Part shown: positions 4,905 to 7,124 of the stretch, piece by piece
Layout of the letters: each line of letters starts with the position of its first letter
How positions within the stretch are numbered: the stretch's first letter is position 1
IMG/VR virus record: IMGVR_UViG_2585427750_000018
Coordinates: 1-15,988 of that record
Source of the DNA: a virus
Lineage: Duplodnaviria; Heunggongvirae; Uroviricota; Caudoviricetes
Strand: one strand, 5' to 3'
DNA: 15,988 nucleotides
Translations under genes and position numbers: made by a program
The notes under the pieces: generated by a model
Database searches by the model: none
Told to the model about the DNA's origin: nothing
The model's input: only the letters and a program-made list of their open reading frames with translations

Positions 4905-5321
4905 GTGCTGACAACGCAAAAACGAAAATTTGCGCTGGCGCTCATGTCCGGGAAAAACAAAACAGCGTCAGCCATTGCCGCTGGTTATTCGGCGAAGACC
5001 GCCAGGGTTAAAGGCTCGCAGCTGGCAAAAGATCCGGAGGTGCTTGCGTTTATAGCCCGTAAACAATGCGAGACGGTGGAGGTGGATGAGGTTCCTGTTT
5101 ACCGGCAGAAAAAATCAGAGCCGGAGGATAAACCCCGTCGCCGTGAGGCGGCTGCAATACCACAGCCGGACGAAAACAATCCGGAGATGCCACCGTCCGC
5201 GGTGATATCTCCTGGTATTGAATATATGGAGGACGGTCTTCCCGATCCGGTGAAAGCCATGGGGCGGATCCTGGTGGAAAACATCAACACCGATCCGAAA
5301 CTGGCACTGGATGCGGCCTAG
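4905..5321 (+). CDS. Terminase small subunit (HTH-containing); ends at an in-frame TAG, but the same frame stays open and coding-like to TGA 5466-5468
   Basis: N-terminal motif QKRKFALALMSGKNKTASAIAAGYSAKTARVKGSQLAKDPEV is typical of phage TerS. GGGAGGAGG RBS before GTG 4905. After TAG 5319-5321 the frame continues KLAQFTHHKKGDTGKKSAKGDAAKKAANRFAVPPPPRLVVNNDNEGNG and ends in an ATGA overlap with the TerL start. Confidence 0.75.
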   Translation: MLTTQKRKFALALMSGKNKTASAIAAGYSAKTARVKGSQLAKDPEVLAFIARKQCETVEVDEVPVYRQKKSEPEDKPRRREAAAIPQPDENNPEMPPSAVISPGIEYMEDGLPDPVKAMGRILVENINTDPKLALDAA

Positions 5322-5464
5322 AAGCTGGCGCAGTTCACGCACCATAAAAAAGGGGATACCGGGAAAAAATCGGCAAAAGGTGATGCCGCGAAAAAAGCGG
5401 CTAACCGTTTTGCGGTGCCACCGCCACCCCGACTGGTGGTGAATAATGATAATGAGGGCAACGG

Positions 5465-7124
5465 ATGATACCTGTATGGAGCACAGCCTGCCCGGACTGG
5501 GCAGAGCGCCTGAAAAAGGGGCTGTCGATTATTCCGGATCCGATTTATCCGGACGAGGCCGCACATGCACTGGCGATTTTTAAACAACTGCGGATTGTGG
5601 ATGCACCTGGTAGCCCGACATTCGGGGAGTCCTGTGCACCGTGGGTGTTTGACCTGGTGGCGGCCCTGTTTGGCTCCTACGATGCGCAGACCGGTGTTCG
5701 CCATATCAAGGAAGTGTTTATCCTTATCCCCAAGAAAAACAGTAAGTCCACGCTGGCCGCGGGGATCATGATGACGGCGCTGTTACTGAACTGGCGGCAG
5801 GCGGCGGGCTACACCATTCTGGCCCCGACCGTGGAGGTGGCGGCTAACGCCTTCAACCCTGCCAGGGATATGGTACGACGGGACGATGATCTGGATGACC
5901 TCTGTCAGGTGCAGACACATATCCGGACCATCACCCATCGGGTGACGGACACCACCCTGAAGGTGGTGGCAGCCGATCCGAATACGGTGTCCGGTATCAA
6001 GTCCGTGGGGACACTGATTGATGAACTGTGGCTGTTTGGCAAGCAGTACAAGGCGGAAGACATGCTACGTGAAGCCATCGGCGGGCTGGCCTCCCGTCCG
6101 GAAGGGTTTGTGGTGTATACGACCACCCAGTCGAATGAACCGCCCGCCGGGGTATTCAGACAGAAACTGCAGTACGCCCGGGATGTCCGCGACGGCAAAA
6201 TTCATGATCCGCACTTTCTGCCGGTGATATTTGAACACCCTCCTGAAATGGTGGAAAGCGGGGCTCACCTGCTGATGGAAAACCTCGCCATGGTCAACCC
6301 GAATCTCGGCTATTCAGTGGATGAGGCCTTTCTGTACCGGGAGTACCGTAAAGCCCGGGAAGCCGGTGAAGAGCATTCCGGGGCTTCATGTCAAAACACG
6401 CCAATGTGGAAATTGGTCTTGCCCTGCGCTCTGACCGCTGGGCGGGGGCGGATTTCTGGGAGAGCAGGGCCGGCGCATCAGCCTGGACGATATCCTGCGT
6501 CGCGCTGATGTGGTGACGGTGGGGATTGACGGCGGAGGCCTGGATGATCTGCTGGGGATGTACGTGACTGGCCGTGACAGGGAGACCCGCGAATGGCTGG
6601 GCTGGGGCCATGCCTGGGTGCATGAAACCGCGGTGGTCAGACGGAAGAGTGAGGCATCCCGGTTTCAGGATTTTGTGGCCTGTGGAGACATGACGATTGT
6701 CCGTCGGGTCGGGGATGACACGGCGGAAGTGGCGGAGGATGTGCGTCGTATTCATGAGGCTGAGTTACTGGATCATATCGGTATTGACCCGTCAGGTGTG
6801 GGGCAGATTCTGGATTCACTGGCGGAAGCCGGGATCCCCGATGAGAGTGTGGTGGGGATAAGCCAGGGCTGGAAGCTGGGCGGGGCCATCAAAACCACCG
6901 AGCGCAAACTGGCTGAAGGGGTGCTGGTGCATGGTGACCAGCCCCTGATGGCCTGGTGTGTCGGCAATGCCCGGGTGGAGCCTAAAGGTAACGCCATTCT
7001 TATCACCAAACAGGCCAGCGGACGGGGAAAAATTGACCCGCTGATGGCGCTCTTCAATGCGGTGTCCCTGATGTCCCTGAATCCGGAACCGAAAAAGAAA
7101 GCGTATGAGGTTTTTTTCATATAA
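5465..7124 (+). CDS. Terminase large subunit (HK97/COG4626-type), apparently interrupted by two -1 frame changes (near 6371-6376 and 6466-6480); possible pseudogene or sequence error
   Basis: N-terminal ATPase region (ORF 5465..6508) and C-terminal nuclease region (ORF 6510..7124, VVTVGIDGGGLDDLLG...IDPLMA) are in different frames. A protein-like bridge (AFRGFMSKHANVEIGLALRSDRWAGADFWESRAG) is found in the third frame between them. Confidence 0.85.

Follow-up and report, generated by a model that had tools for sequence, protein, structure and literature searches.

Why does a phage gene whose reading frame otherwise runs unbroken into its neighbour carry a stop codon? The question is raised by the small terminase (TerS) gene on a 15,988-bp stretch of DNA, analysed here in full and called the window below. 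Read directly in the deposited sequence, T5319, A5320 and G5321 lie in frame with a GTG at 4905, from which the gene runs on the plus strand to a TGA at 5466–5468 (4905–5468; 187 codons if codon 139 were sense). After this TAG (plus strand, 5319–5321) the frame continues for 48 further codons (KLAQFTHHKKGDTGKKSAKGDAAKKAANRFAVPPPPRLVVNNDNEGNG), and the closing TGA overlaps the ATG of the large terminase (TerL) gene at 5465–5467 as an ATGA, a layout shared with annotated relatives. A preliminary description had reported the stop, the open continuation and the overlap just as we find them, and suggested that the TAG was a nonsense mutation, an error in sequencing or a codon in need of amber suppression. 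Comparison with related loci makes it very likely, in our view, that the TAG and two further lesions in TerL are assembly-consensus artefacts that arose from two collapsed prophage copies.

The interrupted gene and its packaging module

The gene is identified as TerS by its place directly upstream of TerL, to which it is coupled via the ATGA at 5465–5468, and by its N-terminal helix-turn-helix, which matched Pfam Terminase_2 (PF03592) over residues 2–57 with 36.1 bits against a cut-off of 26.1. Its relatives carry the same Pfam mark. Against solved structures the match was weak (E = 0.2–0.7) and covered only the N-terminal helix-turn-helix of SF6-type small terminases. The TAG causes TerS to be annotated as a 138-aa product (KEK73818.1). 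Annotated relatives on E. coli chromosomes and in Stx-converting phages had an uninterrupted 187-aa TerS, the ATGA junction and a 553-aa TerL, which bears out the earlier impression of an intact-looking gene broken at one codon. In E. coli prophages and Stx phages whose 187-aa TerS is intact, the 3' end of the gene was ~95–100% identical to the 144 nt that follow the TAG here, and the encoded tail was conserved in other Enterobacterales TerS with only 41–54% overall identity. Because of this near-identity and conservation, the frame downstream of the TAG is, as judged by comparison, true coding sequence and not a chance open frame. TerS protein relatives had W, Y, F or K at the position of the TAG.

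TerL (plus strand, 5465–7124) is also broken, which the preliminary description had not mentioned. Relative to all relatives it carried two private 1-nt deletions, at ~6373 and ~6462, that split the 553-aa frame of the relatives into 5465–6508 and 6510/6564–7124; the fragments are KEK73819.1 and KEK73820.1 in GenBank. Upstream of TerS lies an intact HNH endonuclease gene (plus strand, 4250–4615), as befits a packaging module. The order of genes (HNH endonuclease, TerS, TerL, protease-capsid fusion, portal) and their domains (HNH PF01844, the Terminase_2 helix-turn-helix, TerL_ATPase plus TerL_nuclease, and Peptidase_S78 plus Phage_capsid) are those of the HK97-type module of lambdoid and Stx prophages. 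DNA of Stx1a- and Stx2a-converting phages was 96–97% identical to the window. Apart from the stop and the deletions, which we read as artefacts, we see no biological difference from this known module.

Some relatives outside the window have naturally short TerS proteins. Three variants of 138–139 aa (P0036, P0037 and P0029) lack the entire central linker (roughly residues 42–95) and retain the helix-turn-helix and the C-terminal tail; P0037 was present on 32 contigs, one of them a 5.2-Mb chromosome. The E. albertii TerS (P0001) carries a 15-aa duplication within the same linker. From these sequences the linker appears to be dispensable or of variable length.

Just upstream of TerS, a span of 122 bp (4709–4830) contains ATGTTAAC five times without mismatch, on one strand or the other; at 4709–4722 two of these copies overlap in inverted orientation. 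By chance 0.34 copies would be expected, and 0/200 shuffles reached five. These repeats could be candidate TerS recognition sites or cos-proximal sites of an HNH-dependent packaging module.

Source contig and privacy of the lesions

The window corresponds from end to end to contig JOQD01000055.1 (15,988 bp) of assembly GCA_000713895.1, E. coli 3-475-03_S3_C1. This isolate comes from a study of Tanzanian children, in which it is listed (Table S1) as JOQD00000000, sample SRS568234, with 145 contigs, ST328, phylogroup B1 and O88:H25 (PMC6222053). Genomes in that study were assembled from 100-bp HiSeq 2000 reads with MaSuRCA 2.3.2 (PMC6222053), which joins super-reads to the Celera Assembler. Both ends of the contig lie inside prophage genes (DUF6645 and tape measure), and many E. 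coli genomes carry the terminase module more than once (median 2 places per genome, maximum 8). The locus thus has what is expected of a collapsed repeat: a multi-copy family on a short draft contig that ends within the repeat.

The lesions were private to this contig. Across 5,426 complete E. coli genomes, the best match to 5271–5370 was 91% (1,367 places) and that to 6330–6510 was 95.7%. The exact sequence of the 138-aa truncated TerS was carried by JOQD01000055.1 and by no second contig. An exact-pattern scan of species-representative contigs for the codon context, with TAN allowed, returned no match, the representatives being without this allele context. A genuine pseudogene would be expected to show its lesion in independent sequences of the same lineage, and none was found in these searches.

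We assembled a panel of 82 loci, comprising 80 related loci from viral contigs and two annotated chromosomal loci. Only two alleles occurred in the region of the codon, GCT TAT AAG (49/82 loci) and GCC TGG CGT (33/82 loci), and TAG was found at 0/82. The check on orthologues proposed in the preliminary description therefore returns a sense codon, TAT (Tyr) or TGG (Trp), at this position. The window reads GCC TAG AAG, and every difference from either allele points towards the other.

These data bear on the idea that the TAG is functional, that is, a programmed read-through site or one dependent on an amber suppressor, from which both a short and a full-length TerS would be made. The intact downstream frame with its ATGA overlap with TerL is compatible with such a site, and in known suppression-dependent or stop-recoded phage genes, too, a conserved frame stays open beyond an in-frame TAG. 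Here, however, the TAG is not conserved: besides its absence from the panel, none was seen among complete-genome or protein-database relatives. A tRNA scan found no tRNA gene in the window, so no suppressor tRNA lies nearby, the host uses the standard code, and TerL on the same contig is frameshifted, probably by the same artefactual process. We regard a functional TAG as extremely improbable, and amber suppression as proposed in the preliminary description falls away, given a stop that is private and a window without a tRNA gene.

Two haplotypes and an alphabetical choice between them

The window is a mosaic of two haplotypes. Between 4600 and 7300 it held no private variant besides the two deletions and one SNP (6738), but 41 switches of haplotype were needed to account for it, several of them at neighbouring bases (5283, 5285, 5286, 5288, 5290 and 5294; again 5320, 5321 and 5322). 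Most of 56 panel sequences had 0–10 switches, and the highest counts (35 and 34) came with 27 and 12 private variants. One pair of haplotypes (L019 and L002) explained all but 5 of 387 variable columns, whereas the best single panel sequence left 74 of the 387 unexplained. So fine a mosaic of known haplotypes, with hardly a private variant, is what an artefact would leave. The parental haplotypes used here are proxies drawn from other genomes.

The choice between the two haplotypes followed the alphabet. Taking the alphabetically first letter of TAT and TGG at each column gives TAG, and in the zone around it (5200–5335) the window had the alphabetically first base at 25/27 columns that differ between the two major haplotypes, leaving 2 for the opposite rule. 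A second zone (6150–6480) holds both TerL deletions; in its part from 6150 to 6372 the rule fitted 15/15 or 17/17 differing columns, depending on the haplotype pair. A scan that is independent of the pair found the bias only in bins 5250–5399 (24/28) and 6150–6449 (21/23 scorable sites), with the remainder of the contig near 50%. The preference was for A over G but for C over T, a pattern that rules out simple bias in base composition.

Plain binomial tests and counts of runs proved too liberal for these data, as natural haplotypes reach 18–20/25 by chance. Because binomial runs overstated significance, we used a Fisher test of association between the haplotype that is alphabetically first and the haplotype that the window follows. 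The association was seen at 5200–5335 (14, 0; 2, 11; p = 6e-6) and at 6150–6372 (12, 0; 0, 3; p = 0.002), and was not seen at 5500–6140 (3, 12; 3, 18; p = 0.68) or 6625–7300 (6, 16; 3, 12; p = 0.71). Among 57 control sequences it was absent (minimum p = 0.16). A rule of choice between haplotypes that is not biological is thus present in the window, and we know of no mutational or recombinational process that picks bases alphabetically. For that reason we read the pattern as a consensus tie-break.

The rule was then taken as the symbol order gap, A, C, G, T at differing columns and compared with the lesions themselves. With the two commonest haplotypes as parents it reproduced 5275–5293 exactly (ATT AAT ACC against CTC TGC ATT giving ATC AAC ACC) and 5298–5335 exactly, where TAT AAG against TGG CGT gives TAG AAG. 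The TerL deletions emerged from co-optimal unit-cost gapped alignments with a compensating gap pair, in which the gap wins ties. The stretch 6355–6395, including the first deletion, was reproduced by GAGGAAG-CATTT over GAAGA-GACATTC, again from the two commonest haplotypes. The stretch 6451–6472, including the second deletion, was reproduced by GGGAAG-AGCAG over GGGA-GCAGCAG, for which the parents were the common haplotype of the W-R type and a single-locus variant (L073) of the other haplotype. One rule accounts for all three gene-breaking lesions.

Genuine prophage decay, with a nonsense mutation of a Tyr codon (TAT or TAC) to TAG and two real TerL frameshifts that together inactivate DNA packaging, would look similar at first sight. 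Three disruptive lesions are clustered in the terminase genes as in a defective prophage, the TAG is one substitution away from TAT, and prophages of E. coli often contain pseudogenes, with genes annotated as frameshifted and IS insertions among the relatives of this one. A premature stop in an otherwise intact gene, with lesions nearby, is also what nonsense-inactivated genes of cryptic prophages show. This likeness is superficial. Random changes should be unrelated to other alleles, but each lesion fell at a column where the haplotypes differ, one non-biological rule reproduced every one of them, and the surrounding 136 bp were alphabetical at 25/27 differing columns. Private SNPs were almost absent (1 in 2.7 kb) despite the 41 switches, and no other genome searched shared the lesions. 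The stop belongs to a single draft contig, and its letters combine two common alleles column by column. Decay is therefore very unlikely, and a nonsense mutation, the first of the explanations offered earlier, is not what the sequence supports.

The same hybrid codon might have formed in vivo, through gene conversion or patchy heteroduplex repair between co-resident prophages that turned TAT AAG and TGG CGT into TAG AAG. A fine-scale mosaic of exactly two haplotypes is in keeping with this, lambdoid prophages do recombine, and natural TerS alleles combine states in different ways (for example P0008, ...NINTDPKLALDAAYR...). Many independent tracts of 1–3 bases would nevertheless be needed, all favouring the alphabetically first base, and mismatch repair deletes no base at mismatches, yet both TerL deletions obey the rule. 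We consider conversion or repair of this kind highly improbable, and the broader claim that the TAG is real and was made by recombination between co-resident prophages with Tyr (TAT) and Trp (TGG) alleles of TerS very doubtful. If the hybrid had formed in vivo, inter-prophage gene conversion would have manufactured a stop, and the TAT-TAG-TGG intermediate would have been caught in nature.

We also considered a natural third, 'ancestral' allele with a W-R backbone and NINT...Y-K patches that had acquired one point mutation. Other lineages do show partial combinations of the W-R and NINT...Y-K states. This candidate was rejected, as it leaves the alphabetical association and the two deletions unexplained.

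A model of consensus ties between prophage copies

The reading that we favour, a tie-break between collapsed copies, can be set out as follows. E. coli 3_475_03_S3_C1 would probably harbour at least two related lambdoid prophages with the HNH-TerS-TerL-capsid module. Copy one would read ...ATT AAT ACC...GCT TAT AAG... (NINT...Y-K) and copy two ...CTC TGC ATT...GCC TGG CGT... (LCI...W-R). At ~5200–5335 and ~6150–6480 the sequences of the two copies would have been stacked one-to-one. Such ties are plausible given that super-read assembly reduces the reads of each copy to single sequences. The consensus caller of MaSuRCA/Celera would then settle each disagreement by symbol rank (gap first, then A, C, G and T); '-ACGT' is presumed to be the index order of symbols in the Celera code for this step. 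Applied to the columns of TAT AAG and TGG CGT, such a ranking would yield TAG AAG, a stop codon. In TerL, the aligner would use a compensating gap pair instead of mismatches and both gap columns would be dropped, which would leave the two 1-nt deletions.

Details of the fit refine this model. Most of the contig showed no alphabetical bias, so the collapse must be local. Columns 5294 and 5297 in the first zone and several beyond 6373 break the rule, and the real copies must therefore differ slightly from our proxies.

If the model holds, the strain probably has no DNA molecule that carries the TAG, and no read is expected to contain GCCTAGAAG. Both collapsed copies were probably intact, and the genome most likely has two prophages with intact TerS, one Tyr-Lys and one Trp-Arg. 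The TAG would then be neither a pseudogene lesion nor an amber-suppression site, and in our judgement it is no real biological feature. Of the explanations given in the preliminary description, error thus survives in altered form, as an assembly-consensus error at a column where alleles differ and not as a read error. The loss of the part of TerS that contacts TerL, which that description had deduced from a truncated C-terminus, is probably moot since the stop is read as an assembly artefact.

Consensus errors at collapsed repeats are known from short-read drafts, and this case shares their setting (a multi-copy lambdoid module, a contig bounded by prophage genes and mixed haplotypes) and their outcome (a spurious stop and frameshifts in a mixed consensus). 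It differs in that the error can be diagnosed from the sequence alone, through a deterministic tie-break confined to two zones of ~150–350 bp. The biological weight of the locus is small, as the strain most likely carries two lambdoid prophages whose HK97-type terminase genes are ordinary and intact. KEK73818.1 (138-aa TerS) and the TerL fragments KEK73819.1 and KEK73820.1 are probably artefacts. The same signature, in which a private stop or 1-nt deletion falls on a column that distinguishes two known alleles and the alphabetically first base is taken, may recur in other multi-copy regions of assemblies from the same pipeline. Prophage pseudogenes and 'defective' prophages would then be overcounted, and the test of association with alphabetical order can flag tie zones without reads.

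Several smaller observations concern the rest of the window. In the part of TerL that encodes the nuclease, and outside both tie zones, the window has G at 6738, a column with T in each of the 61 panel sequences that cover it. Because it lies outside the zones, this SNP may be a genuine strain-specific change. The YlcI/YnfO (DUF3950) gene (minus strand, 4008–4208) is intact in the window (66 aa) and annotated as frameshifted in L002, the closest complete-genome relative; 1-nt indels at 4155, 4209 and 4228 separate the two around this gene.

In the region 9335–12081, RefSeq relatives annotate a single 2,585-nt 'phage portal protein, frameshifted'. The window has two ORFs there with an ATGA overlap at 10696–10699, a portal gene (PF04860) and a repeat-containing ORF without a Pfam match, and the 'frameshift' label that recurs may stand for a natural arrangement, either two genes or recoding, and not for damage. 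The second of these ORFs (461 aa) contains a 162-bp (54-aa) tandem repeat at 10921–11612, with 4.3 copies at 97% identity, one copy more than in L002. Its copy number may be unreliable in a draft assembly with collapse artefacts.

Within the portal gene, the window had the alphabetically first base at 20 of the first 22 biallelic columns of 9450–9560 (bin p = 0.011), and a compensating −1/+1 indel pair nearby (9404/9408) separates it from L002. This stretch may be a third consensus tie zone.
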